Shown in pieces: positions 2,769 through 64,000 of a DNA stretch of 64,000 bases. The notes under the pieces were generated by a model. The model was not told the DNA's origin, ran no database searches, and saw nothing but the letters and a program-made list of their open reading frames with translations. The stretch spans positions 10,156-74,155 of the forward strand of contig JAAZNV010000009.1 in NCBI GenBank assembly GCA_012798115.1, written 5' to 3'. Made by a program: the position numbers and the translations under genes. Every line of letters starts with the position of its first letter. Within the stretch, counting starts at the first letter, position 1. The stretch comes from a candidate division WWE3 bacterium (GTDB lineage: Bacteria > Patescibacteriota > WWE3 > UBA101185 > UBA10185).

Positions 2769-5700
2769 ATGGCAAATAACCCTCTTTATCCTGGATATCA
2801 ACCAGGAAAGAAAAACGATGAAAATATTAATCCGTTATATCCTGGCTATTATGCAGGTCAACCTTTGCAAAGGAGACCATCTCCTAAGAATTACTTAAGA
2901 CCAATTGAATATGAAGGGGATAAAATTGCACAAGCACTTGATGAAACAGAGCAAGGGGTTCTAAAAACCATGAATGTACCAAAGTGGATAATAGAAAGAG
3001 TAGCTGATGATTGGAAGAGCAAGTACAAAATATCAATTAAGCCACCGGATATAGAAACTACAGAATTAGATGATTATGCAACCGAAGATTTTCCAGGTGC
3101 TGTTACCACATTAAATGTAGATCCTGGAAGCTGGAAAAAAGATGCAAAGAAAGAAGCTGTAAAGACAATAAAATCATGGGTTAAAGAATCCACTGGATTT
3201 GATACAGATAACCCTCTTAAAACTGATTTTTCTGATATAGAAAACAAGGTGAATCATGAGTTGTGGATTAGAGCATTAGGTTATGGAAAACCAGATACTT
3301 GGCTTGAGGAAAAGACAAGTATGGGAGTAGCAAAAAGGGTAGCTGCCCCATTTCCAAACTTAAGTGAGAATCTACAAAAAGGAGAAAATCCTTTAAACGT
3401 TAGAGACGTGGCTGTATGGTACGTAGATGATAATGGAAACAAAGTAGTAAAAAAAGATATCTATCATAATACAGCAGCTGCTGCTGCAGAGTTTGCAGAG
3501 CAAAGCAGCAATCCTAAAGTTAGAGATAAGCTTCACTCTCAATTTATAGCAAATGCTATAAGCGCTACAAATACAGAAATTCAAGCTAAGTTTAGAAATC
3601 CTGGAATAAAAGATAGATCTTTTTTGGATAAGTATGAAGGAGATGTAAAACTTTTTGACATAAAAACTCAAACTATAGACGACATTCGTAACCTACAAGA
3701 AAAAACCTTAAAAGGAACTACAAAAGAAATAAAGAAATCAATATTAAAAGGGGCTAAAAGAGATTCTTATGCATCAACTTGGGAAGAACTAGAGATTGCA
3801 TTAAATAAAGCAAGCAATAATCAAAAGACTAGAATGAAGAATGCAGAAACTCTTTTATCTCAAGGAAAGATCTCAAAAGAAGCTTTTGATAAGCTACAAA
3901 AGAGTGTAAATGACTATAACAGTTTCTTAGATAATGCGTTAGACAAAGTTACAGGAGCTAAAGATGGAAAACTTTCACCAACTATAGTTTTACACTCGCT
4001 AACTGGGGTTGGAGAAAAAAGTCTTGTAGAAGAAAATCTTTTCACAAAAAGTATAGTAGGAAAACTACAAAAGGATGCTGAGTACAGTATGATAAGTACC
4101 AAACCAGGTGAGATTGGAAGAATGTTACGTGATGATAACTTGAAGGCTCAAGGAATGAGTTTTAGCGCAGAAAAGATAAGTGCTGTTGCATATAGACTAA
4201 GAAGAGAAAAGATAGGACAACAAACCACTGAATTTTTAGAAGCAGTAAACGACCCTAAAAAGGCATTAGAAAGATATGCATGGAACAGGGTAACAAGCAG
4301 AATGTCTCCAAGATTAGCTGCATTTACTACTGGTGAGTACATTGAAAACAGATTAAAAAAGAGAAACTACTTTGGACTAAAAGTTGATGAAAGTGGAATA
4401 CCAAGTACCCTTAGCGGTTCAAAAAGGGCTGTAAGAAAATTTGAAAGATTCGAGAGAAAGTATGGATACAAAGTGGATATTAAGTTAGAGAAGAAATATT
4501 TTGGTGTCGGGAAATTAACCGTTAGAGGAGGGGACCAGTTTAAGATTTTAAACAACAAGCTACTTAAAGGACTTGATTCTGAAATCGATAAAGAATTTTT
4601 ATTGCATACCCTTGGAGATGGGAAAGTTACAGCAGATATGTTATCTAAAAAGTTTTTTGGTAAAACTTTTAAAGATTTAACTGGAGGAGAGAAAAAAGAA
4701 ATAGCTGCATTTGCAAGAGAATCCAGAGCTTATAGAGAATGGGTTAATAGCTTATCAGATAAATTTGGCGATAAAACAAAGCAAGGACTTTTTGGGTATG
4801 AATTATTCAAGAGAGTAAAAGGCAAGAATGATGAACTACCAAATGGGTATAGTCTTACAAGAAAATACGCTGGAAGGTTAGAAAAAGTTCACAAGAAGAT
4901 GTTAGAGGCAAAAGCTAAGTTTGAAAAGAGTGCTATTGGTAAGTTAATAAAAATAGCCAGCAACTGGAGAGAGATGGCAGCAGAGAAGATTGCTGAGTTG
5001 GTCTCTAAGTTAGTAGCTAAGTTAATAGGAGCTGTTGCAGGCTCAACTGGAATATTTGCAGTACTTGGACCAATAATAGAAAAGGCTGTTAATTTTGTGG
5101 TCAAAGAGGTTGTGAAGAGAGTAACAGATTTCTTCAGTGCTGTTGTAAAAGGGGATATAGACAAAGCATTTGAGGTTCTTGAGGAAGCTGCTAAGAAGTT
5201 TGCACTTGGGTGTTCACTAATATTTGCTCCATTTTTTGCTGCCATAATAAGTATTGTATTGCTGTTAGGTTCCATACTAGGTGGATCTGAATCTCCAATT
5301 GATAGAACTGCCGACTCGACATTAATAAAAAGTCAGACAGAGTTTGTCTCAGGAGAAAATGCAGTCGTTAAAATAACAAAGGGTGCAACTGTAAAGGTAC
5401 TAGGAACTGGAGAAACAATTACTAATCCAAACCATTTTGAAAACAGTGTTTTAAGAAGCGGCCTGCAAGTAACATACAAAGTGCATGTAACTCCAAAGAT
5501 TACTTTACCAAACGGATCAGTATTTTTTATAGATGAAGTGTTGGCAAGAAATGAAATGGATTCATGGAGTGTTAAAAACTACGGTACAACAATGGTAAAC
5601 CCGTTTATAGCAGGAAATACAATAACATACGATCTTACGCCACCTATCATTATAAAAGGTGATAAGTTTAAAGATTCTGTAGTAGCCAATACTGCCACAG

Positions 5701-8880: not shown

Positions 8881-10674
8881 ATGATCTCTTGCCCACATAA
8901 AAAAAGTATAAGGAAGGGTATAACCTTCATAACAATACTTTTATTTGTAATTCCTATGTTACTTTCCCTTAAGATTCAAAACACGTATGCAGAAGATAAG
9001 TGTAAAAACATATCGGACAAGGATGATCAAACAGAATGTTATGAAAATCTAGAAAAGGAAACACAAGCTAAGTTAAGTAGTACAAAATCTAAATTAGATA
9101 ACACATTAAATTCAATCAATCAACTATCTTCTCAACTAAATGTAACACAAGCACAACTCAACGATGTCCAATCAGATATAAACGATATAAAAGAAGAACT
9201 AGATCAAATAAATTCTGTATTAGAAGACAGAAATAATAAATTATCGGAAAAGATAACATTCAGAAACAACTTACTTAGAAACTACTCTAAGAAGAATGTG
9301 GTAAACGACTTGGAACTATTCTTTTCTAGCAACAAGGAAACAAACTTGAGTGGTTTTCAAACAGCTACTTTTATATATGCATTTAACAAAGCAACTAGTG
9401 GGAATATTTTAAAAATAATAGGAGCATTAAACTCTGAAATTAGAAACTATGAAAAAAACAAAGAAGAATCAGAAGAAATTAAGAAAGACCTAGAAATTGC
9501 ACAAAACAACTTAATATCTTTAAAGAAGGATTTAGATGCAAGAAAAGCTAATGCACAAAGCGAAGCAAATAAACTAGAAGAACAAAAAACAGAATACGAA
9601 GAAAAGCTAGAAGAGCTTCAAAGTAAAATATTAAGCTTAAAATATGGTGATGAAAGTGGTTCCGTTGGGGATTATGAGTCACCTTCATCCAAAACACCAT
9701 CCCCTCCGTTTGACAATGCATTTGCAGCATTTTCTTATGGAGCATATACCCATTACAACGGCATGAGCCAATATGGGGCAAAAGGCAGGGCTGAAGATGA
9801 AAAAAGCTATAAAGATATTATTAAGTTTTATTATGGTGAAAGTGTAAAAGAAAAAGATGACTTTCCAGAAAAAATATGTGTTGAAGGTTACGGAAATATG
9901 AGTTTTCAAAAATATCTTTACGGTATAGCTGAAATGCCAAGCTCTTGGGATGAAGATGCTCTAAAAGCTCAAGCAGTAGCTGCTAGATCTTATGCATACA
10001 AAAGAACCAAAGGTGGGGGGTGCATATGCACTACCCAAAGCTGTCAGGTCTTTTCAAAAAGCAAGTCTGACAACCCACCAGGAAGTTGGAAAAAAGCTGT
10101 CGATAACACTGAGAATGAAATAATAGGGGGAGATACAGGAAAATCAGGGTATGGCTGGTATTCATCAACAACGGGAGGATATCTTAACCAAGCAGGGTGG
10201 GACTTAGATGGAAAGTGGCCTGGACAAGCCTACGAAAAAAAAGCAGGATCACCATGGTTCTATAAAGCATGGTATACAAAAAGTTATAGTGATTCATCAA
10301 CATGTGGTCATTCACATCCATGGCTTACAGAAGAAGAAATGGCTGACATTATTAACTCATGGGTGGTTTATACAAAAGGATCTTCAAGTGAGAAAAGTCA
10401 TATTACCCCAAGAACAGAAAGTTGTTGGGGAGGTGATCCTTACTCTCTTGATGAAATGGCATCAAAAGCAGATAAATATGGGGATAAATATACAAACGTA
10501 TCAAAAGTTTGGGTTGATATAAGCAATTCTGGATATACATCAAAAGTTCACTTCCAGACAAATAATGGAGAAGTATCTATTGATGGAGCAACATTCAAGA
10601 CAGTCTTTAACTTAAGAGCTCCTGGATACGTTGCAATAAGAAGCAGACTCTACGATCTTGAATTAAGAGACTAA
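8881..10674 (+). CDS. Membrane-anchored coiled-coil protein with C-terminal SpoIID/LytB-like peptidoglycan-remodelling domain
   Basis: N-terminal TM/signal, then a long Q/N/E/K-rich heptad-like region. The C-terminal domain has AQAVAARSYAY and CICTTQSCQVF, resembling the SpoIID/LytB signature (AQAVAART..., TTxCQVY). Confidence 0.55.
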   Translation: MISCPHKKSIRKGITFITILLFVIPMLLSLKIQNTYAEDKCKNISDKDDQTECYENLEKETQAKLSSTKSKLDNTLNSINQLSSQLNVTQAQLNDVQSDINDIKEELDQINSVLEDRNNKLSEKITFRNNLLRNYSKKNVVNDLELFFSSNKETNLSGFQTATFIYAFNKATSGNILKIIGALNSEIRNYEKNKEESEEIKKDLEIAQNNLISLKKDLDARKANAQSEANKLEEQKTEYEEKLEELQSKILSLKYGDESGSVGDYESPSSKTPSPPFDNAFAAFSYGAYTHYNGMSQYGAKGRAEDEKSYKDIIKFYYGESVKEKDDFPEKICVEGYGNMSFQKYLYGIAEMPSSWDEDALKAQAVAARSYAYKRTKGGGCICTTQSCQVFSKSKSDNPPGSWKKAVDNTENEIIGGDTGKSGYGWYSSTTGGYLNQAGWDLDGKWPGQAYEKKAGSPWFYKAWYTKSYSDSSTCGHSHPWLTEEEMADIINSWVVYTKGSSSEKSHITPRTESCWGGDPYSLDEMASKADKYGDKYTNVSKVWVDISNSGYTSKVHFQTNNGEVSIDGATFKTVFNLRAPGYVAIRSRLYDLELRD

Positions 10675-10730: not shown

Positions 10731-11294
10731 ATGAGTACATCAACTTTACTTAAATCATTCATCAAAAACCCACCAAATACTTCCTATCAAGGAAGAGATA
10801 ACGATGAACGCATAATACTTGTTATTAGGAAAAGTTTAGTTGCTGTTTACAAATGGGTACTTATGTTCATTTTGCTCTTAATCATTCCAATATTTTTAAT
10901 GCCTTGGTTAGCAAGTTTGCAATACAACAACTACTTCATATTCACTGCTGGATTCATTCGCTGCTTAACTGCCTTTTGGTACTTATTCTCTATTGGTTTT
11001 ACTTTTCAAAACTTCTTGAATTGGTATTTTGAAGTGCTTTTAGTTACAAATAAGAAAGTTGTAGATATAGACAACTCTTGTACCAATATTTCAGAAGCCA
11101 CCTTAAACAACATTCAAGATGTAACATCAAAAATAAGCAAAGGATGGGAACAAATATTAAATATTGGGTCGATATATATTCAAACAGCCGCAGAAAGAGA
11201 AGAGTTTGAGTTTGATACTATAGATAATCCTTCATTTGTCAGGGATGCTATAGCAGATTTAATTTCAAAACATAAAGGACACCATGGACATTAG
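10731..11294 (+). CDS. Membrane protein with two TM helices and bacterial PH (bPH_2/YdbS-like) domain (tentative)
   Basis: Two adjacent hydrophobic helices followed by a ~100-aa soluble domain with a His-rich tail (HKGHHGH). Confidence 0.35.
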   Translation: MSTSTLLKSFIKNPPNTSYQGRDNDERIILVIRKSLVAVYKWVLMFILLLIIPIFLMPWLASLQYNNYFIFTAGFIRCLTAFWYLFSIGFTFQNFLNWYFEVLLVTNKKVVDIDNSCTNISEATLNNIQDVTSKISKGWEQILNIGSIYIQTAAEREEFEFDTIDNPSFVRDAIADLISKHKGHHGH

Positions 11295-11526
11295 TAATTA
11301 TTCTATACAACAAATAATAAAAGTTGGTTCTGGAACCATTGAAATCTTCGTATTTTTAATGATGGTTCTTTACTTATTCTTTGCATTCATCTTAATTAGG
11401 AAACTAAGGATAATGAATTTAAATCTTAAAACCCCTTACAACAAGTTATTCTTGCTCCTAGCAAGGGTACACTTTGTGGCTTCCTTTATTGTTATTATTC
11501 TTACGTTTATAACCATAAGAAGGTAG
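11284..11526 (+). CDS. Small two-TM membrane protein
   Basis: 80 aa with two hydrophobic segments. Overlaps the upstream gene by 11 nt. Confidence 0.3.
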   Translation: MDISNYSIQQIIKVGSGTIEIFVFLMMVLYLFFAFILIRKLRIMNLNLKTPYNKLFLLLARVHFVASFIVIILTFITIRR

Positions 11527-11527
11527 A

Positions 11528-13375
11528 ATGATTAAAAAACTAACTGCAAAAACCCAAGAACTAAATCCAAAATTACCTCAATACAGTAATTCATTTTCAA
11601 AATGCGTAATCATCAAACCAGAGACACAAGAGTTGCTATTAAAAAAAGGCACTGTATACAGTGTGTTTGATGTATCAGGAGAATCTAATTTTGATACAGA
11701 GCTAGTAATTAAAGTGATAAATGATGTCATAAATAACCTCTACTTCCAATCAGAGAGTATATCTCCAATACAATCAATGGAAAAAGCTATTGTAGAAACC
11801 AAAGAAAAAGTTCTTCAACTATCCAACGATACATTAACTTCCAACCCGCAGAGCATTAACTTAAACATGATAACTGCAGTTTTATGGGGAAGCGTCTTGT
11901 ACATAATAAAATTTGGAGGTGCTAAAGGATATCTAATGAAAAACGGGGAAATATCCCCCTTAGAGATGATATCGGAAGGAAACTTCTCTACTGCTTCAAA
12001 GGTTGTTGATGAAGACGAAGTACTAATATTAGCTACAGAACATTTTGAGAGATCATTTCCCCCAGAAAGACTCTTAGCAACAAGCATTGGTGAAGGAGAC
12101 TTAGATCCCAATCAAGCATGTCTTCTCATGAGACTGATCATAGATACTACATTTTCAGATAATGAAGTGGTTGACTTTGGTTTGGGTGATGCAGTTTCAA
12201 AGAATAAAAACAGGGTAAGAGTAGAAAAACTTACAAGTATTATCGAAGATGCTTCAAGATGGATATTAAAATCTATTAAAAAAGTATGTGGAGTATTTGT
12301 TGCATTAGGAAAACTTTTAGCGGATGCTATTTCAAAAGTACTCCCGAGAAGGAAAGCTGTACTCTTAACAAGAAGTATAAGTCAATTATCAGGAAAAGGT
12401 GGAACAAAAACAAAAAGCTGGTTGCCTTTAAGCTTAATGTCAATATCTCTTGCTTTTCTGGTGTTTTTTATCTTAAGATCTACTGTACTTAAAAGCACCA
12501 ACAAGGAAAATATGGAAAGAAAAAATACAGGACAACAAACAGTTGAAACCAGTACAAAAGAAGTTGTAAATACAGAAACTGAAGACAAGTCAAAAGATGA
12601 GCAATATAAAATTAAACGAGTATCTCCGGAAGTATTTTATGACTTGAAAATTACGGATCAATCAGTAGAACCAAGTGAAATTGAAATAGTTGGAGACAAA
12701 GTTGTTATTGTAGATAAAATTACTGGGAAAATATATGTATCAGATATCTCAACTCCAAACTTTAAGCTTGGGGTAAATACGTTCCCTGGCATTAAATCAC
12801 TAGCATCTTCAGAAGACCTGTTGTCCTTTAATGATAATGAAGGCTACAAGACCTACAGTATTAAAAACTCTACCGTAATAAGCTCATATAAAGTAGAAGG
12901 TTTATCACTAACATTCCCATATGCAGGTTTTATATACTCAGTATCTTCAGATATTTTATCCAAGAATACAGAAAAAGATGGGAAACTAGATGGAGTAGTT
13001 TGGGCCCAAAGCCCAGATTTTGTAGATGCTAAGTCGATGTCAATTGCATACAGCATTTATATATTGAAGAAAGATGGAAACCTTGTTAATTATTCAGGCG
13101 GGTCTAAAACTAGCTTTGCCATTAACGGCCTTGAAAAACCTCTCTCCGATCCTTCAAAGGTTAGCACGAATATTGATTTTGAATACATTTACATAGCAGA
13201 TAAAGGAAATGAAGCTATAGTGGTTATTGATAACAAAGGAAATGTAGTAAAACAGTACAAGTATGAGGATAGTAGTACATGGAGTGATATTAAGAGCATT
13301 GCTATATCTTCGGATGAAAAGACCATCTTTGTTTTAAACTCAAGCAAAATATATAAACTAAATATAGAAAACTAA
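11528..13375 (+). CDS. Bitopic protein: N-terminal degenerate PP2C/SpoIIE-like phosphatase-like domain, one TM, C-terminal extracytoplasmic beta-propeller-like domain (tentative)
   Basis: The N-terminal region (VFDVSGES...ITAVLWGSVLYIIKFGGAKGYLMKNGE...DEDEVLILATEHF) follows the PP2C block pattern. TM is WLPLSLMSISLAFLVFFIL. C-terminal repeats resemble propeller blades (IYVSD, IYIADKGNEAIVVIDNKGNVV). Confidence 0.3.
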   Translation: MIKKLTAKTQELNPKLPQYSNSFSKCVIIKPETQELLLKKGTVYSVFDVSGESNFDTELVIKVINDVINNLYFQSESISPIQSMEKAIVETKEKVLQLSNDTLTSNPQSINLNMITAVLWGSVLYIIKFGGAKGYLMKNGEISPLEMISEGNFSTASKVVDEDEVLILATEHFERSFPPERLLATSIGEGDLDPNQACLLMRLIIDTTFSDNEVVDFGLGDAVSKNKNRVRVEKLTSIIEDASRWILKSIKKVCGVFVALGKLLADAISKVLPRRKAVLLTRSISQLSGKGGTKTKSWLPLSLMSISLAFLVFFILRSTVLKSTNKENMERKNTGQQTVETSTKEVVNTETEDKSKDEQYKIKRVSPEVFYDLKITDQSVEPSEIEIVGDKVVIVDKITGKIYVSDISTPNFKLGVNTFPGIKSLASSEDLLSFNDNEGYKTYSIKNSTVISSYKVEGLSLTFPYAGFIYSVSSDILSKNTEKDGKLDGVVWAQSPDFVDAKSMSIAYSIYILKKDGNLVNYSGGSKTSFAINGLEKPLSDPSKVSTNIDFEYIYIADKGNEAIVVIDNKGNVVKQYKYEDSSTWSDIKSIAISSDEKTIFVLNSSKIYKLNIEN

Positions 13376-26574: not shown

Positions 26575-27777
26575 CTAAATTCCTAGTATCTCCTTATAAA
26601 TAATAGACGCAGCTACTGTATACAACCAATCAGAACTTAATAACTCTCCTGTGGCATAAGATACTTTTGATAAATCAGATAAGGATAATTTGGCTATCTC
26701 TAGACTAGCTTTAAATGGAATTGTTTTAGTCCATGGTTCTTCTTTTAGAGCGTTTTCAATATCTGGTATTTCAGCTCCACATCCGGATAGAAATATTTTG
26801 TTTGAAAACATTTTTATTCCAGAAAAATCTTCAAATAGCAACTTAATTCCATCAATCCACAAGCTTGTTATTCCTTTCAAGCATTTCTCGACGGTTATCC
26901 TCTCACTTTCTGAAAGTTTTTCTTGGTTGTACATATTTAATACATTTTCAGCATCTTTTGGTGATAAACCCATGTTTAACCCCACTGCTTCTATGAAGTG
27001 TGTATGTCCAATATTTAGGGTTTTAGATGAAACTATGCCACCACCAAATACAACTCCTACATCAGTTGAGTCTTCTGCAATACTAATTAAGACAAAATCT
27101 AGAATGTTTTTTGGAGGGTTTTTAAACCATTCAACAACTGAATACATCTGAGATCCTAATGCAATTAATTCAAGGCCTGATTTTTTAATTATTCCTTGAA
27201 TGGATTTAACGTGAAAACTTGGAGCAAAAGAATTGTACACTGCAGCTTCAATTGTCTCCCCACGCTGGCCCTCAAGTATTGCTACATTTTGATTATCTAT
27301 TTTTAAATAAATGTCAGACGTTGTTATTGAATCTAGTTCTAAATCTGGATCTCCAGTGTTCTGAAGAACTTTGTTATGTGCTTGAATATATGAAGCTTCT
27401 GTAATTCTGGAGTAAAGTTCTTCCACCTCATCAGCCTTAATAGGATCTGTTGTTGCTCTTTTTAGTCTTACCGTTGTAGTAAGTCCTAGTGTAATTCCGC
27501 CATCAATAGCAATTATTGTTTTTCTTGTTTTATCCTCTAAATTTTCTGTTGCTTTACTAACAACCTCTTTTATTGCTTCGCTAACCCCTTCTTTATTAAT
27601 AACCATTCCATTCCTTACGTAACCTTTCTCTAGGTTCTTTTTTCCTGACCCAATTATTTTAAATAAATCCCCATCGAAAAAGAATGCAACACATCTAACA
27701 TCCTTAGCATTTACATTCAAAGATAAGAACTTATTTGTGTTGGTATCTACTTTTTCTAAAAAAGGCAGATTAAACAT
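26575..27777 (-). CDS. Actin-fold ATPase of the FtsA/PilM family
   Basis: N-terminal glycine-rich phosphate loop region and a GHTHFIEAVGLNMGLSPKDAENVL block resembling the FtsA/PilM GG...AE..K motif; 400 aa. No ftsZ nearby. Confidence 0.5.
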   Translation of the reverse strand: MFNLPFLEKVDTNTNKFLSLNVNAKDVRCVAFFFDGDLFKIIGSGKKNLEKGYVRNGMVINKEGVSEAIKEVVSKATENLEDKTRKTIIAIDGGITLGLTTTVRLKRATTDPIKADEVEELYSRITEASYIQAHNKVLQNTGDPDLELDSITTSDIYLKIDNQNVAILEGQRGETIEAAVYNSFAPSFHVKSIQGIIKKSGLELIALGSQMYSVVEWFKNPPKNILDFVLISIAEDSTDVGVVFGGGIVSSKTLNIGHTHFIEAVGLNMGLSPKDAENVLNMYNQEKLSESERITVEKCLKGITSLWIDGIKLLFEDFSGIKMFSNKIFLSGCGAEIPDIENALKEEPWTKTIPFKASLEIAKLSLSDLSKVSYATGELLSSDWLYTVAASIIYKEILGI

Positions 27778-36834: not shown

Positions 36835-37104
36835 TTAAGTACTCTCTACCTTTTCAATACCTGGCTGATCTTTTAGGAAAATAATTATTTCCTCAGCCAT
36901 TTTCTTAGAACAGCTTAATTTGAGCTTCGTTCCATTTTCGTAGTTCTCCCCAACCACTGGTATCGCAAACTTTCTTATCAAAAAGAGTTCAAGATTAGGG
37001 TTGCAAGGTTCAACCCAAATGTATTGCTTACCAAAGATACACATGAACACTCTCCTTCTTGTATGTTTAGCAGAGATTATATAGATATGATACTTTTTAA
37101 TCAA
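36835..37104 (-). CDS. Small hypothetical protein
   Basis: 89 aa, no recognised motif. Ends 2 nt after the murJ stop. Confidence 0.3.
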   Translation of the reverse strand: MIKKYHIYIISAKHTRRRVFMCIFGKQYIWVEPCNPNLELFLIRKFAIPVVGENYENGTKLKLSCSKKMAEEIIIFLKDQPGIEKVEST

Positions 37105-57819: not shown

Positions 57820-60711
57820 TTAACCCTTTTCTGCAAAAGGACATATACCCTTATAATCACACCAAGTGCAATGTTTCCCTGGATTAGCCTCAAACTCTCC
57901 TTTTTTTATTCCCTTAACAACCTCTTTTATTTTTTCCTTCTCAGCTTCTATCTGCTTGTCTGTTCTTTTTGTTGATATCTTTTCTCCGGTTTCTACGTAA
58001 TAAAGAACTAAGTCTTTTGGATTTAAATTCAAAGCTTCCTTTACAGCCATTGCGTAAATAGTCATTTGAGCATCTTGGTTTGCTTCTTTTTGGCTTTTCT
58101 CGTTTCCTGTTTTGTAATCAATAATTTCTATATCTCCACTTGGAAGTTCATCTATCCTGTCTATTTTTCCAAATAGTTTTATCCCATCTATTTTTAAATT
58201 AAATGACTTCTCAATACCTAAATGTTTAACGTCCAAGTTCTTATTCTTGTTGTAGTAGTCCTCTAAAAGTTTAATACCGCTTTCAAATCTTAATTTCCTA
58301 TGCTTTTCATCAATATAACCTAATGGATTCCAATTCTTTTCGTAAATATCTAAAAGCTGATCGATAGAAATGTCTTTCCCAAACATTTTTTGGGTGTGAA
58401 ATTCCTTTAAAGTTTCATGAATAGTGTTTCCAAAACTTAAAGAATGATTTGGAGCTGTTGGTATTTTTAAAACATAAGAATATTTATATCTCAAAGGACA
58501 TATTAAGTAATTGTCTACTTGAGAGTAGCTGATAAAATCAGGGGCGAAACCTGTAAGCTTTTTGACTTTAGGTTCTCTAAAACCTGTTCCTACTGCAAAT
58601 AAAGTAGACTGCTCCTCTTTTTTTCTAATACTGTCTACTTTTACTTCCTTAATGCTTAATTCTGTTTCTTCAAGGAACCCACTAGGCGTGGTTTCTCTTT
58701 TACCTCCGTAATCCTTTCCTAAAGTCATAAAAAGATACTTTTTTGCTCTTGTCATACCAACATAAAACAATCGTCTTTCTTCTTGTATATGCTCATCTCC
58801 AATTGGAAGAGTTTCTTTTATTAGATCGTCTGGTAGTTCTATTAAATCCCCCTTGTTTCTTGTTGGAAATCTTCCTGAGACAAGGTTTATTATGAAAACA
58901 ACAGGGAACTCCAGTCCTTTTGCAGAATGAACGGTAAGTAAATTAATTGTGTCAACATCTTCTACTTCTGCTTGAGCTGGGTTTTCGCCAGCTTCAATTA
59001 CAAGATCAATATAGTCTACAAAATCAATAAGGGTTGGCATTTCTTTTGTTTCTGAATGAAAGTCCACTTCAAATTTTTGTATTTTATTTAAAAACAAATT
59101 CAAATTTTTTATACTTAGTTCATTTTCAATAGTTTCTTCTTCTAGAAAATGATTAATGTAGCCAATTGAATTTACTAAGTTGTATACAATTTCAGTAGGG
59201 GATGATTTAGTAAGATTATTTTGAAATTCCAGTATCAAGCTTTTAATACGCTCAACATTCTCATCTTTTGACTCTTTGACTTGAGTCCATAAATCTGTTT
59301 TTTTAAATCTTGTTTGCGATAAAAGTTTTGATATTTCTTCATAAGAAATGTTTAAAGAATCTATATTTAATACCCTGTATAGGCTTGTACCATCTGTGGG
59401 GTCAACAATGGCCTTTAGAAGGGCCAAAATGTCCCTTATTTCCTCTCTATCATATAATCCTCTGTTTCCTACTAGTTGATAAGGAAGATTATGTTTTCGA
59501 AGAGCCATGAAAATCGGATCAAGATGGTTATTTGCTCTTGCTAGTATGGCAAAATCCTTGTATGTATATTGAGGTTCCTTAGCTAGTATTTCTAGTATTT
59601 TTGAAATAATAAACTCAACTTCATCCTCAAGGGTTTCTGTTTGAATTATCTCTGGAGTAATTCCCTTTTCTTTAGTTTCACTTTTTAGTTCTTTTGAGAT
59701 TCCTAACTTTGACTCCAAAGTATCTGGGTTGTTATTCTTGATTAGTTTATATGCAGGATCTAGAATTTTTTGAGAAGATCTGTAATTCTTAAGAAGAGTT
59801 ACCATTGTTGAATCTTTAAAGTCTTCCATAAATTGAAGAATATTTGAAACAGCAGCTCCCCTAAATTTATATATTGATTGGGAGTCATCCCCAACTACTA
59901 GAAGACTTCTTTCTTGATAATCATTGCTTCTTCTAGTGTTTTTATTAGGGAAGAGAAGTTTTATTAATTCATATTGAGCATAATTTGTATCTTGAAACTC
60001 ATCTACAAGTATGTGTTTGAACTGCTCTTGATATTTTTTTAAAATATTTGGTCTTTCTTTGAATAGTTTTATTGTCCACGTTATTAAATCTCCAAAGTCT
60101 AGCTTTGAATTTTGTATTTTTAATTGTTCATATCTTTCGTAAATATAGACAAGCTCCTCCCATCTTTGTTTTTCTTCATCGTCCTCCCTATTCTTGTTTG
60201 ATTTGATTACAAATTCACTGAACTCCTTGGAGGATATATTCTCATCTTGGAGTCTGGATATGAATTTAATTATTGCTGATATGAACTTAGTGGGGTTTCC
60301 TAATGGTCTAAAATATCTTAAATCAAATTCAAAAATGTTCTTTCTAAACAATAACCACTGGTCTGAAGGAGAAAGTATTTTATATGATGGGTCAAGACCA
60401 ATCTCTAATCCTTCTGCTTTTAAAATTCGATCTGCAAATGAATGAAAAGTATATACCCATGGTTCCTCATACCCTAATGGCATTATGTCTCCAATTCTTA
60501 AAATCATCTCTTGTGATGCTTTTTCAGTGAATGTTAAAGCTAGTATTTCTTGTGGTTTTACTTTTTTATCTTGAATTAAGTATCTTATTCTTTCTGTTAT
60601 TACTCTTGTTTTACCTGTTCCGGCTCCAGCAACTACTAGGATAGGCCCTGATTTGTGCTTTATTGCTTTAATTTGGTCTTCGTTAAGTTGTGTTTTTGTA
60701 TCTTTGGACAC
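57820..60711 (-). CDS. UvrD-like SF1 helicase fused to a C-terminal PD-(D/E)xK nuclease with a Cas4/AddB-type 4-Cys cluster
   Basis: N-terminal GPILVVAGAGTGKTRVITERIRYLI and DEFQDTN. C-terminal CPLRYKY...DRIDEL..IIDYKTG...CTWCDYKGICP gives a RecB-family nuclease core plus a Cys cluster. Confidence 0.7.
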   Translation of the reverse strand: MSKDTKTQLNEDQIKAIKHKSGPILVVAGAGTGKTRVITERIRYLIQDKKVKPQEILALTFTEKASQEMILRIGDIMPLGYEEPWVYTFHSFADRILKAEGLEIGLDPSYKILSPSDQWLLFRKNIFEFDLRYFRPLGNPTKFISAIIKFISRLQDENISSKEFSEFVIKSNKNREDDEEKQRWEELVYIYERYEQLKIQNSKLDFGDLITWTIKLFKERPNILKKYQEQFKHILVDEFQDTNYAQYELIKLLFPNKNTRRSNDYQERSLLVVGDDSQSIYKFRGAAVSNILQFMEDFKDSTMVTLLKNYRSSQKILDPAYKLIKNNNPDTLESKLGISKELKSETKEKGITPEIIQTETLEDEVEFIISKILEILAKEPQYTYKDFAILARANNHLDPIFMALRKHNLPYQLVGNRGLYDREEIRDILALLKAIVDPTDGTSLYRVLNIDSLNISYEEISKLLSQTRFKKTDLWTQVKESKDENVERIKSLILEFQNNLTKSSPTEIVYNLVNSIGYINHFLEEETIENELSIKNLNLFLNKIQKFEVDFHSETKEMPTLIDFVDYIDLVIEAGENPAQAEVEDVDTINLLTVHSAKGLEFPVVFIINLVSGRFPTRNKGDLIELPDDLIKETLPIGDEHIQEERRLFYVGMTRAKKYLFMTLGKDYGGKRETTPSGFLEETELSIKEVKVDSIRKKEEQSTLFAVGTGFREPKVKKLTGFAPDFISYSQVDNYLICPLRYKYSYVLKIPTAPNHSLSFGNTIHETLKEFHTQKMFGKDISIDQLLDIYEKNWNPLGYIDEKHRKLRFESGIKLLEDYYNKNKNLDVKHLGIEKSFNLKIDGIKLFGKIDRIDELPSGDIEIIDYKTGNEKSQKEANQDAQMTIYAMAVKEALNLNPKDLVLYYVETGEKISTKRTDKQIEAEKEKIKEVVKGIKKGEFEANPGKHCTWCDYKGICPFAEKG

Positions 60712-60849
60712 TGGTTGTATTATAAACGATTAAGGTTCTTCTTAGAAAAAACAAACAGATTTTGTATTTTATTTACAAAGGCTTTGGTTATCCCATGTTG
60801 TAGTTGGCAGTATGTTTAAGCATACACCAAACTTAAGTTCTTTCCTTAA

Positions 60850-60879
60850 TTGAATCGAAGTATTCATTAGGGTTATAAT
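60850..60879 (+). promoter_or_regulatory. Near-consensus sigma70-type promoter (TTGAAT-18 nt-TATAAT) for the small ORF
   Basis: -35 at 60850-60855, perfect -10 TATAAT at 60874-60879, then AAGGAGGG SD at 60894-60901. Confidence 0.5.
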
Positions 60880-60905
60880 GACGTTCCAACACGAAGGAGG
60901 GAAGA

Positions 60906-61010
60906 ATGAGTAATTTTAGTCCAATAATTTATTTTGTTCTTTTCGTTGTGGTAGTTCTGATTGGTCTTTTCTGCATAGCTGGTTTCTATGGTAAGTCTAA
61001 CGGTAAGTAG
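60906..61010 (+). CDS. 34-aa hydrophobic single-TM peptide (MSNFSPIIYFVLFVVVVLIGLFCIAGFYGKSNGK), not in the ORF track
   Basis: Bracketed by a consensus promoter, a strong SD with 4-nt spacing, and a hairpin terminator with U-tract. Such canonical signals are rare among the neighbouring genes. Confidence 0.45.
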   Translation: MSNFSPIIYFVLFVVVVLIGLFCIAGFYGKSNGK

Positions 61011-61039
61011 GGGAAGTGATTAAGTTTATTGTTCACACT

Positions 61040-61069
61040 AAAGCCCTTCTTTATTCCAGGAGGGGCTTT
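61040..61069 (+). terminator. Rho-independent terminator for the small ORF, overlapping the 3' end of rmuC on the other strand
   Basis: AAAGCCCTTC...GAGGGGCTTT (one mismatch) followed by TCTTTCTCT. Confidence 0.5.
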
Positions 61070-62109
61070 TCTTTCTCTGGTTCTATTGCTTGAACTTTTT
61101 CTATCTTTCCAAATAGTCTAGTGAATTTATTTTTAACCCCATCCATAGATTTATATGTATTTGATATATGCCTTCCAAGAACATCTAGTTCTTCATTAAA
61201 CTTTTGAGCATCTACTTTTATTCCAGCTAGAGATTTTAATATCTTATCTGCATGTTTTTGAAGCTCGTGTTGTTGATAGGCAACTAGAAGTACTTTTAAG
61301 AAGTAAGTTAAAGTGTTTGGAGATGCTAGTATTATATTTTTAGCTTTTGAATATTCTTCTATTTCTGGTGTGTTTACAACAAGTTCGTAATATACATTTT
61401 CTGATGGAACATACATTATTGCCTGATCTGTGGTCTTTTCTTCTGGGAGAATATATTTACTTGATATTTCTTCTATCCTTTTTTTGACGTCTGATACAAA
61501 TACTTTCTTAAACCTATCCCTTTCTGCTTGTGTCTCTGCGGTTATCATTGCTTTAAAGTTTTCCATTGGAAACTTGGAATCTATTGGGATAATTCCTCTG
61601 TCTGTGAAGACTACAGCATCACAAGCATTACCGTCTTTAAACTTATATTGTGTTTTGTATAAGTCTTTAGGTAGGAAGTTTTCTAGTATTTCATATAAAA
61701 ATTGTTCACCAAGACCACCTCTTAGCTTTGGGGATTTTAAAATATTGCTTAAATCCTTCATATCTGTACCAAATTCTTGTATTCCACCCAACTGTTTTTG
61801 TACTTCTCTAATTACATCTGATGATTTTTCTAGTCTCTCAGATATGAATTTTGTTTGTTGGCTTAATGTATCTCTTTGATTTTTCATTTGTTCTTCCATA
61901 CTTGTTCTTTGATCTTTTAGCTGTCTTTCCATAACTTCTGTGTTTTTCTCTACTGACCCCTTCATTTCTTTCAGCCATTCCATAAGGACAGTGTCTTCTG
62001 TTTTTTGAGACCTTTTGATTTGCTGGATTATGAAATAACCAATGGATATTAAAGAACCAACGGTTAAGAAGATTATTAATACTATCGTTTGAGAAGTCAT
62101 TGTTATCAT
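61051..62109 (-). CDS. rmuC: DNA recombination protein RmuC
   Basis: N-terminal TM, long coiled coil and the RmuC C-terminal nuclease-like domain (...VMYVPSENVYYEL...). Confidence 0.75.
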   Translation of the reverse strand: MITMTSQTIVLIIFLTVGSLISIGYFIIQQIKRSQKTEDTVLMEWLKEMKGSVEKNTEVMERQLKDQRTSMEEQMKNQRDTLSQQTKFISERLEKSSDVIREVQKQLGGIQEFGTDMKDLSNILKSPKLRGGLGEQFLYEILENFLPKDLYKTQYKFKDGNACDAVVFTDRGIIPIDSKFPMENFKAMITAETQAERDRFKKVFVSDVKKRIEEISSKYILPEEKTTDQAIMYVPSENVYYELVVNTPEIEEYSKAKNIILASPNTLTYFLKVLLVAYQQHELQKHADKILKSLAGIKVDAQKFNEELDVLGRHISNTYKSMDGVKNKFTRLFGKIEKVQAIEPEKEKPLLE

Positions 62110-62167
62110 TCTAGCACAGGAAAGAAAAATACCGTCTGAGTATTGTCATCGACGGTATTTGTTGTGT

Positions 62168-62401
62168 TTATCTTTTTGTTTTTGCTATTTCGTAAAATTT
62201 GCCTAAAGCTTGTGAGCTTAGTTTTTGGACTTTTTCTTCAAGTACAGTTCCTTTAACTGTGGACTCAACAGATGTAATTAAATCTTGTATTAAAAGGCAC
62301 TCTCCTTGAGTTTTAGCTGTGTTAAGTGCCCTTTCAATTTCCTTGATTATATCTTCTACACTATACTCTCCCTGTTCCTTAGAGACTTTTGTTCTATTCA
62401 T
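62168..62401 (-). CDS. Small hypothetical helical protein
   Basis: 77 aa, no motif. Confidence 0.3.
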   Translation of the reverse strand: MNRTKVSKEQGEYSVEDIIKEIERALNTAKTQGECLLIQDLITSVESTVKGTVLEEKVQKLSSQALGKFYEIAKTKR

Positions 62402-62462
62402 TTCTCCTCCTTATCTATTGTTTTGATAGGATTATATAAACAAGGAATGATAAAATCAATTT

Positions 62463-62825
62463 ATGCCTAAGTTTATTAAGTTTGTTGGTGTTTTAACTAT
62501 ACTTTTGTGGTCTTTGCTTATAACTTTAGTTTTTACCACTCTCCCTAATTCTTATACAAACATATTTATGTTTTTGGTTGTTTTGTTTTTGTGTTTAGGG
62601 TTTACTTTATCCTTACCTTTTTATTTTATTTACACAAAGAAGCTTCCAAATTTTATTAACTTGAAGTTACTCTATAGAAAAGGGTTAAAGTGGGGGGTGT
62701 TTATTAGCTTTGGGGTCGTGTGCTTCCTCTTTCTTAAAGCTTTAAATCTAATTAATCTACTTAATATTGGTCTGCTTCTCCTTTTCTACATTGGTATCTT
62801 CTTTCAAATAAAGGGTAAAAGGTAA
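62463..62825 (+). CDS. Small multi-TM membrane protein
   Basis: 120 aa with 3-4 hydrophobic helices. Confidence 0.35.
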   Translation: MPKFIKFVGVLTILLWSLLITLVFTTLPNSYTNIFMFLVVLFLCLGFTLSLPFYFIYTKKLPNFINLKLLYRKGLKWGVFISFGVVCFLFLKALNLINLLNIGLLLLFYIGIFFQIKGKR

Positions 62826-62879
62826 ATATCTTTGATTGTGTTTATTACCTCTAAGTAGCATAAATGTTAAAATTCTCCT

Positions 62880-64000
62880 GTGAAGAAGAAAATATTAATT
62901 ACAACAGCAATAGATTACGTAAATGATGTAATTCATATTGGTCATGCTTATCAAAAAATATTAGCTGATTGTATAGCTAGGTACCAAAGACTAAGAAGAG
63001 GAGAAAACAACGTATTTTTTGTAACTGGCACCGATGAACATGGTCAAAAGGTATTTAACGTAGCTAAAGAAAAAGGAATTGATGTTAAACAGTTTGTAGA
63101 TGAAATATCCAAAAAAGATCAAGAGCAGCAAGACTCTTTGAACATATCATATGATAGATTTATTAGAACTACGGATGAAGACCATAAAAGGATAGCAACT
63201 GAATTCTTTAAAAAAGTTTATGATGCAGGATATATATACAAGGGAACATATAAAGGACTTTATTGTGAAGGATGTGAAGAATACAAAACAGAAAAGGAAC
63301 TAGTTGATGGAAGATGCACCCTTCATCCTAATGGAGAAATACAGATTGTTGAAGAAGAAAACTACTTCTTTAAGTTCTCTGAATTTAGAGCTTTCCTTAA
63401 AGATTTATTTGATAAGAACAGTGATTTTGTGTTGCCAAAGCAACGTTTTAACGATATGTATTCTTTAGTGGATAAGGTGGAAGATATACCTGTAACCAGA
63501 AGAAAAGAGAAACTTCCATGGGGTATTGAATGTCCAATAGATAGTAATCATGTTCTATGGGTGTGGTTTGATGCTCTTGTTAACTACTTAACGTTTGGAT
63601 TGCAGAAAAACTGCTGGGATAGTGATACTCAAATAGTTCATTTCCTAGGAAAAGACAATGCAAGAATGCATGCACTTTTATGGCCCTCAATGCTAAAAGC
63701 CGCTGGTTATGAAATTCCATCGAATGTTTATGTAAATGCATTCTTGAGTTTGAATGGTAAAAAGATTAGCAAAAGTTTAGGAAATGTAGTTAGTCCTAAA
63801 GAATTAGTAGAGAAGTATGGGGTAGATCCTGTTAGGTACTACTTCTTAAGATATGGGCCTATTGTTGAGGATAGTGATTTCTCCGAAGAACACTTTAAAA
63901 GTGTGTACAATGGAGATCTTGCAAATGGTCTTGGAAACACAGTATCTAGGCTTTTTAAGCTTTCTGACAGAGCTAAAATGTCATTCACTGTCAATAAGAC
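62880..64000 (+). CDS. metG: Methionyl-tRNA synthetase, 5' portion (continues beyond the window); GTG start
   Basis: ILITTAIDYVNDVIHIGHAYQKILADCIARYQRLRRGENNVFFVTGTDEHGQKV; class I HIGH region. The frame is open to the window end, and the first in-frame start after the TAA at 62868 is GTG at 62880. Confidence 0.85.
   Translation, partial: MKKKILITTAIDYVNDVIHIGHAYQKILADCIARYQRLRRGENNVFFVTGTDEHGQKVFNVAKEKGIDVKQFVDEISKKDQEQQDSLNISYDRFIRTTDEDHKRIATEFFKKVYDAGYIYKGTYKGLYCEGCEEYKTEKELVDGRCTLHPNGEIQIVEEENYFFKFSEFRAFLKDLFDKNSDFVLPKQRFNDMYSLVDKVEDIPVTRRKEKLPWGIECPIDSNHVLWVWFDALVNYLTFGLQKNCWDSDTQIVHFLGKDNARMHALLWPSMLKAAGYEIPSNVYVNAFLSLNGKKISKSLGNVVSPKELVEKYGVDPVRYYFLRYGPIVEDSDFSEEHFKSVYNGDLANGLGNTVSRLFKLSDRAKMSFTVNK

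Follow-up and report, generated by a model that had tools for sequence, protein, structure and literature searches.

The window analysed here, a 64,000-nucleotide (nt) stretch of a candidate division WWE3 contig to whose full length all positions refer, contains a small gene of 34 codons that lies between a helicase gene and rmuC. Relatives of the encoded RmuC assign the DNA to WWE3 (Katanobacteria), within the Patescibacteria. The rmuC gene (61051-62109, minus strand; Pfam RmuC, 8e-52) is convergent to the small gene and encodes a protein with an N-terminal hydrophobic segment. Upstream and divergent is a minus-strand gene (57820-60711) for a UvrD/PcrA-type helicase fused to a PD-(D/E)XK Cas4-like nuclease. 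The gaps flanking the small gene measure 194 nt upstream and 40 nt downstream; in strains of the L001 type (L001-L053 are the labels of the related contigs and loci that were compared with the window) the upstream gap is 86 nt. A first-pass annotation of this DNA had reported a TTGAAT-18-TATAAT promoter, a Shine-Dalgarno (SD) sequence with an ATG 4 nt behind it, a peptide of 34 amino acids (aa) with a single transmembrane (TM) segment, and a GC hairpin whose U-tract reaches into the 3' end of the convergent rmuC. All of these features were recovered in place (Table 1).

Table 1. Features of the small gene and of the adjoining rmuC 3' end.
Feature	Position	Strand	Remarks
Left edge of conserved unit	60840-60849	+	identity with the alternative strain arrangement starts at 60840, 10 nt upstream of the -35
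-35 hexamer TTGAAT	60850-60855	+	identical in L008; TTGATT or TTTGAT in L051 and L052
-10 hexamer TATAAT, 18-nt spacer	60874-60879	+	predicted transcription start near 60886-60887
Shine-Dalgarno AAGGAGGG	60894-60901	+	ATG at 60906, 4 nt after the SD
Open reading frame (ORF), 34 codons, protein MSNFSPIIYFVLFVVVVLIGLFCIAGFYGKSNGK	60906-61010	+	exact peptide on 7 metagenome contigs
Terminator stem-loop, arms AAAGCCCTTCTT and AGGAGGGGCTTT, loop TATTCC	61040-61069	+	supported by fold and relatives
U-tract TCTTTCTCTGG after the stem	61070-61080	+	predicted mRNA 3' end
rmuC 3' end, last codons EKEKPLLE	61051-61080	-	stop codon 61051-61053; overlapped by the terminator of the small gene

The predicted promoter is of the sigma-70 type: its hexamers are 18 nt apart, within the 16-18 nt expected, and are retained in L008, L051 and L052, where flanking and coding sequence have diverged. 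In a consensus scan of the 6 kb around the gene, scored out of 12, it reached 10/12 and was the joint best. Loose matches to promoters (16 observed against 23.6 expected) and to terminators (2 observed against 2.6 expected) are no more frequent in the region than expected. A promoter of at least 10/12 that is followed by an SD 5-mer and an ATG is rare, however: the two strands of the 64-kb window together hold only six. All six stand before ORFs of 34-144 codons, or of 69-144 codons if the small gene is left aside. The combination of signals found at the small gene exceeds chance.

The hairpin behind the ORF comprises 12 pairs, five of them G-C, and is followed by TCTTTCTCT; a stem-loop with a U-tract that is maintained in relatives constitutes a predicted intrinsic (Rho-independent) terminator. 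Its fold energy is -16.4 kcal/mol (z = -4.0), a stability attained by 0 of 200 shuffles. Read on the minus strand the same hairpin is weaker (-10.5 kcal/mol, z -1.75) and has the tail UUUAGUG. The rmuC stop codon sits in the hairpin loop, and the 3' arm together with the U-tract encodes the C-terminus of RmuC. Transcription from ~60886 to ~61078 would yield an mRNA of ~190 nt with a leader of ~20 nt. As deduced from this predicted 3' end, the mRNAs of the small gene and of rmuC would be complementary over at least ~28 nt. Although the two mRNAs would thereby be partly complementary, the overlap of the terminator with rmuC may most simply reflect genome compaction.

The fold of the whole transcript is unremarkable (z -1.4), and sequestration of the SD by nucleotides of the ORF appears only in the minimum free energy (MFE) structure, not in the centroid. 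No tRNA or tmRNA was found; the whole window gave no Rfam match at the gathering threshold, and a permissive Rfam scan of 60650-61150 returned only chance-level matches far under threshold. Two further candidates were rejected. An inverted repeat resembling a miniature inverted-repeat transposable element (60824-60851 / 61005-61032) is only 71% complementary, weak for AT-rich DNA, and was set aside for that reason and because its left arm crosses a strain breakpoint at 60840 (see below). The other, a potential operator in the promoter spacer (TGAAT-N6-ATTCA), is not kept in L008.

The peptide has a short uncharged N-terminus (MSNFSP), a hydrophobic helix spanning residues ~7-27 and a C-terminal tail YGKSNGK with a charge of +2. 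Residues 7-27 would suffice to cross a bilayer, and AlphaFold2 returned one helix, residues 4-33, with a mean predicted local distance difference test score (pLDDT) of 87.6. The tail had been described at first as rich in lysine, which overstates it: GKSNGK has only two. By the positive-inside rule, and as is established for small membrane proteins, the peptide would be oriented N-out with its two-lysine tail in the cytoplasm. Since a chain of 34 residues cannot clear the ribosome before termination, insertion into the membrane would, on general grounds, be post-translational. No family match was obtained with Pfam (E <= 1), NCBIfam (E <= 10) or PADLOC. The ORF is not wholly unannotated, as had been supposed: it is already called in the JGI, Logan and ENA gene sets, in each case with no name. 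Contigs of this population derive from SRR6476075, SRR25435849, SRR25435861 and JGI 3300028903, 3300028625 and 3300022663.

Coding constraint and positional equivalents across WWE3

The nearest diverged ortholog is found in L008, where RmuC is 95% identical and the peptide, MSELSPIVYFVLFVVVVLIGLCCMAGFYGKSGGK, is 82% identical. Comparison of the two small ORFs by the Nei-Gojobori method gave a synonymous divergence (dS) of 0.55 and a nonsynonymous divergence (dN) of 0.11, that is, an omega of 0.20. Codon position 3 holds 11 of the 17 nucleotide differences. Among 20000 random mutation sets of equal size just 8 were stop-free with six or fewer residue changes (p ~4e-4). In the core of the helix (residues 9-21) there are five synonymous changes and no replacement. 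The pattern of substitution indicates purifying selection on the encoded protein, strongest on the hydrophobic core. Constraint on the peptide is about six-fold more relaxed than on RmuC, for which omega is 0.03. At sequence level the ORF has the attributes of a bona fide translated small ORF: translation signals, purifying selection and conservation in relatives.

Sequence conservation of the peptide is gone beyond ~95% RmuC identity. A search with the peptide extended by seven upstream codons recovered only the peptide itself, and on present alignments homology appears demonstrable only to L008 and possibly to L010. With an omega of ~0.2 compared to 0.03 for rmuC, steady relaxed constraint is expected to have erased the similarity by the point where RmuC identity has fallen to 87%, and replacement of the gene as a cassette need not be invoked.

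In order to look beyond alignable relatives, positional equivalents were defined by a filter: an ATG start, an SD 4-mer at -17 to -4, a length of 25-60 aa, and a Kyte-Doolittle hydropathy that reaches 2.3 or more in the best window of 18 residues. An ORF passing this filter, with a single TM segment, convergent to rmuC and no more than 460 nt from the rmuC stop, is present in 17 of 28 WWE3 loci. The remaining 446 kb of strand sequence from the same loci holds only two. The nominal binomial probability of this enrichment is ~5e-39, a figure that applies to related loci and to thresholds set after a first look. Further positional equivalents occur in L036 and in three relatives with 87% RmuC identity (L051, L052 and L053). 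Nine rmuC loci from outside WWE3 all lack such an ORF. Taken with the L008 ortholog, these counts show that the ORF is conserved among relatives.

The equivalents are 29-53 aa long and number one to three per locus, sometimes none; indels and duplications clearly occur at this position. In L010 a single promoter precedes three tandem TM ORFs (32, 34 and 41 aa; 2162-2500), all of them with an SD of their own. Two small ORFs are present in L021 and likewise in L052, where they encode 48 and 32 aa (3632-3881), and in L051 (3596-3780) the stop of a 19-aa ORF that is not TM overlaps the start of a 41-aa TM ORF. The small gene is missing in about a third of the WWE3 loci that bear rmuC, and no small ORF is found where rmuC abuts the next gene (L012, L013, L028 and L037). 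The C-terminal tails are polar, with varying charge.

Despite the differing coding sequences, an SD and an ATG at proper spacing are retained in nearly all relatives. Upstream of the small ORF, at a distance of 20-60 nt, most related loci carry a TATAAT box, and in most a strong hairpin directly follows the ORF. In L051 and L052 the promoter, including its spacer, can be aligned to that of the window; the ORFs downstream cannot. The terminator of L008 (5060-5110, compared to 61010-61069 of the window) has been rebuilt: three G-to-A changes, synonymous in rmuC, break the stem of the window type, and an 8-nt upstream insertion creates a new stem in which the old 5' arm becomes the 3' arm. Of 20 loci, 14 have a T-rich tail behind the hairpin on the strand of the small ORF, and just one has an A-rich head that could serve rmuC. 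In having a hairpin between, and partly inside, the two genes, with the U-tract antisense to RmuC Glu and Lys codons, the locus resembles convergent gene pairs that share a terminator in compact genomes. It differs from them in polarity: the counts of 14 and 1 in 20 do not describe a symmetric bidirectional terminator.

On the basis of these comparisons we think that the gene is probably a monocistronic gene for a single-pass membrane micro-protein of 34 aa, one of a fast-evolving set that is specific to WWE3 and encoded beside the 3' end of rmuC. The set would be dispensable in WWE3, and its role would be that of a lineage-specific small membrane protein. Several points weigh against this interpretation. 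A phmmer search of 1.84 billion representatives returned only the L008 ortholog. Among 19 positional equivalents the mean identity is 19%, and not one column of their alignment is conserved, so that homology of the distant ones is inferred from position and architecture only. The filter thresholds were chosen after initial inspection of the loci, and the related loci lack phylogenetic independence. Fast turnover, variation in presence and absence, and tandem copies (L010, L021) are also traits of type I toxins. The small gene shares no operon with a membrane complex, and no partner can be named; moreover, the gene is known from sequence alone and the organism is uncultured.

Shine-Dalgarno-led and apparently leaderless genes in the window

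The first-pass annotation had remarked that most genes in the window lack a strong ribosome-binding site, and the counts agree: among 58 long ORFs, 45 are without an SD 4-mer and a 6-mer is present in just seven. Of 57 long ORFs, 12 have a TANAAT box that ends exactly 6-7 nt before the start codon, and 15 have one if 4-10 nt is allowed. A box at 6-7 nt is the signature of a leaderless mRNA, and leaderless-type starts appear to be common in the window. The helicase gene is one example, with TATAAT, 7 nt and GTG (60711-60726); others are at 8881, 10731, 16506, 26575-27777 (minus strand), 54259 and 62463. A full-text literature search, judged mostly by title and abstract, found no paper on leaderless genes in Patescibacteria, also called the Candidate Phyla Radiation (CPR). 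The SD-led minority in the window includes the genes for DnaK, a YtxH-like protein and a pilin-like protein. The small gene falls within this minority and would, by that token, probably be well expressed.

The start of rmuC is probably at the fourth codon of the listed ORF (ATG, 62100-62098): a TAGAAT box overlaps the listed ATG and ends 7 nt before the fourth codon, and in the L008 ortholog the first codon is not ATG. With a start 7 nt after TAGAAT, rmuC too is probably leaderless. Two unnamed genes flank rmuC on its other side, one for a 77-aa protein (62168-62401, minus strand) with a strong promoter and an SD, the other for a 120-aa protein with multiple TM segments (62463-62825, plus strand) and a leaderless-type start. 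Neither has a match in Pfam, NCBIfam or PADLOC. The pair accompanies rmuC in near-identical contigs, and a 120-aa gene is also present in L051 and L052.

Two additional small ORFs elsewhere in the window deserve mention. Between two long minus-strand genes, 36835-37044 (minus strand) encodes a 69-aa protein that is not hydrophobic (MCIFGKQYIWVEPCNPNLELF...) and is preceded by TTGATT-17-TATAAT, an SD and an ATG. In the gap 11294-11528, a 37-aa ORF (11413-11526, plus strand; MNLNLKTPYNKLFLLLARVHFVASFIVIILTFITIRR) with a hydrophobic C-terminal half and a weak SD ends just before the next gene.

Toxin, module component or RNA

The first-pass annotation held the architecture to be typical of either a type I toxin or a regulatory micro-protein. 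Selection, position and signals bear out a micro-protein; for a type I toxin, a consensus scan found no antisense promoter and the gaps are short. Nevertheless, a type I-like membrane toxin, depolarising when in excess, is the alternative that fares best. Its antisense RNA would be the convergent rmuC mRNA, acting through its 3' end or by read-through. Taking every variant of a toxin together, we regard this explanation as unlikely.

Overlap of the 3' ends of toxin and antitoxin transcripts is a feature of the Bacillus pairs bsrG/SR4 and txpA/RatA, and the small gene resembles them in its overlap with a convergent transcript. The predicted complementarity of the mRNAs (at least ~28 nt) is consistent with such control. 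A terminator in the orientation of rmuC is missing in 19 of 20 loci, so that read-through antisense to the small gene is possible; lacking a good terminator of its own and overlapping at the 3' end, the rmuC mRNA could serve as the antisense RNA. The MFE structure, moreover, pairs the SD with nucleotides of the ORF. The protein also fits. Searches for type I toxins have looked for small (<=70 aa) hydrophobic TM proteins with a polar, charged or aromatic C-terminus (PMC2887945), features matched by a peptide of under 70 aa with a single TM segment and the C-terminus FYGKSNGK. Described toxins such as Fst/Ldr, TisB, DinQ and Zor are likewise shorter than 60 aa, with one TM segment and a polar or aromatic C-terminus (PMC2887945; PMC3567139). 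Among single-TM toxins some are linked to DNA damage, DinQ for example (PMC3567139). The likeness extends to transcription as a separate unit that has a terminator of its own, to the tandem copies of L010 and L021, to variation in presence and absence, and to rapid sequence turnover.

Against this stands the lack of a detectable antitoxin. The search for an antisense promoter, a consensus scan, found no site of at least 9/12 on the minus strand of 60850-61100 and none of at least 10/12 in 16 relatives, as compared to 9 of the 16 on the sense side. A minus-strand TAAAAT (60918-60913) was considered as an antisense -10 and rejected: it has no usable -35 and is not kept in L008. The flanks used in the type I search were >400 nt upstream and >250 nt downstream (PMC2887945), far more than the 194 (or 86) nt and 40 nt available here. 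In L052 the promoters of the helicase gene and of the small gene stand back to back with ~35 nt between them, which leaves no room for a small RNA gene. The leader is short (~20 nt) and unstructured, and the fold that pairs the SD has a z of -1.4 and is missing from the centroid. The tandem ORFs of L010 form a polycistron behind one promoter and are not repeated modules of toxin and small RNA. The peptide belongs to none of the known toxin families in Pfam and NCBIfam (Hok/Gef, Ldr, Fst, TisB, Ibs, ShoB, TxpA, BsrG and others), and there is no Rfam match to an antitoxin RNA. Finally, a strong promoter joined to a strong SD, in a genome region where SDs mark genes like dnaK, argues for abundant expression. 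On this evidence a type I toxin-antitoxin reading of the small gene is not supported.

In one particular form of the toxin hypothesis, the 3' end of rmuC would carry a cassette of zero to three micro-TM membrane toxins or stress effectors per locus, with fast turnover, behind a conserved promoter, and the rmuC mRNA would be their sole antisense partner, by the overlap at its 3' end or by unterminated read-through. We consider this version improbable. If true, a protein-coding mRNA, that of rmuC, would also serve as antitoxin, and membrane state would be tied to the handling of DNA damage in an episymbiont with a minimal genome.

Association with rmuC could alternatively mean that the peptide is a membrane effector or accessory of a module comprising RmuC and the UvrD-type helicase-nuclease, in defence or the DNA-damage response for example, where it would provide anchoring or signalling for RmuC. 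The chance of this we take to be slim. The hydrophobic segment at the N-terminus of RmuC is in its favour, as are matches to the PADLOC models RTasHel (helicase-nuclease, 2e-94) and RTasRmuC (RmuC, 1e-11), which derive from reverse-transcriptase-associated defence systems. These matches appear generic: the helicase is best matched by PcrA/UvrD, and with no reverse transcriptase or other defence gene adjacent a defence island was rejected.

The arrangement of genes in related strains is informative in this regard. The small gene adjoins rmuC across WWE3 and in both of two strain arrangements. In L001-L005 the left neighbour is not the helicase gene, but a FemAB gene on the same strand, with genes for a Mur ligase, DegT and FemAB leftward. 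Comparison of L001 and L005 to the window by blastn gave 99.6% identity over 60840-64000 and no match leftward, which places a strain-level rearrangement breakpoint at 60839/60840. With identity beginning at 60840, promoter, ORF and terminator have stayed with rmuC as one block through the rearrangement. Both arrangements recur at 87-95% RmuC identity, FemAB in L008, L051 and L053, the helicase in L052. FemAB thus takes the place of the helicase in many strains while the small gene is unchanged. In addition, about a third of the WWE3 loci that keep rmuC do so without the small gene, which is convergent to rmuC and not co-transcribed with it. The tightness of the linkage is sufficiently explained by a gap of only 40-120 nt that holds the terminator.

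It is very improbable that the transcript is what functions, as a small non-coding RNA or as a unit insulating or modulating rmuC and the helicase gene, and that the peptide is an incidental T-rich ORF: although the promoter outlasts the ORF in conservation at 87% RmuC identity, hydrophobic ORFs arise readily from T-rich DNA and the unit in the window runs antisense between co-directional rmuC and helicase genes, the substitutions follow the frame (omega 0.20, 11 of 17 at position 3, p ~4e-4), an SD with a well-spaced ATG persists in nearly all relatives, the T-rich background supplies only two comparable ORFs in 446 kb, and the transcript has neither an Rfam match above chance nor a notable fold (z -1.4).

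A probable small membrane protein in a compact genome

The interpretation that we favour, a membrane micro-protein, has precedent. AcrZ, KdpF, CydX, MgtS and YohP are examples of small membrane proteins in E. coli. The small gene shares with such proteins its length, a single helix with a short polar tail, an SD of its own, poor conservation and the tendency to go unannotated. KdpF and CydX, however, are encoded in operons with the complexes that they partner, whereas the small gene is monocistronic and convergent to a DNA-recombination gene. Its product has no sequence similarity to any described family. What is new is an unnamed small membrane protein; the kind is already known, bacterial membrane proteins of up to 50 aa being a reviewed class (PMC10730256). 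Acting within the bilayer, the peptide would most likely assist or modulate some other membrane protein, or modulate the properties of the membrane itself, in a non-essential role, and would most likely not be a toxin under RNA control.

Annotation regularly overlooks small membrane proteins or gives them no name, and those of Patescibacteria are almost entirely unexplored. Here a real small gene could be recognised from its signals alone. An SD-led, leadered mRNA that is the exception among apparently leaderless genes is of use for gene calling in WWE3. Nothing is overturned by these findings; their value lies in a well-supported annotation and in a candidate for the study of small-protein function, or toxicity, in CPR bacteria. 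The tiny genomes of this group are assumed to hold little that is dispensable, and yet a whole lineage would seem to maintain, at one position on the chromosome, a slot for a fast-evolving micro-protein.

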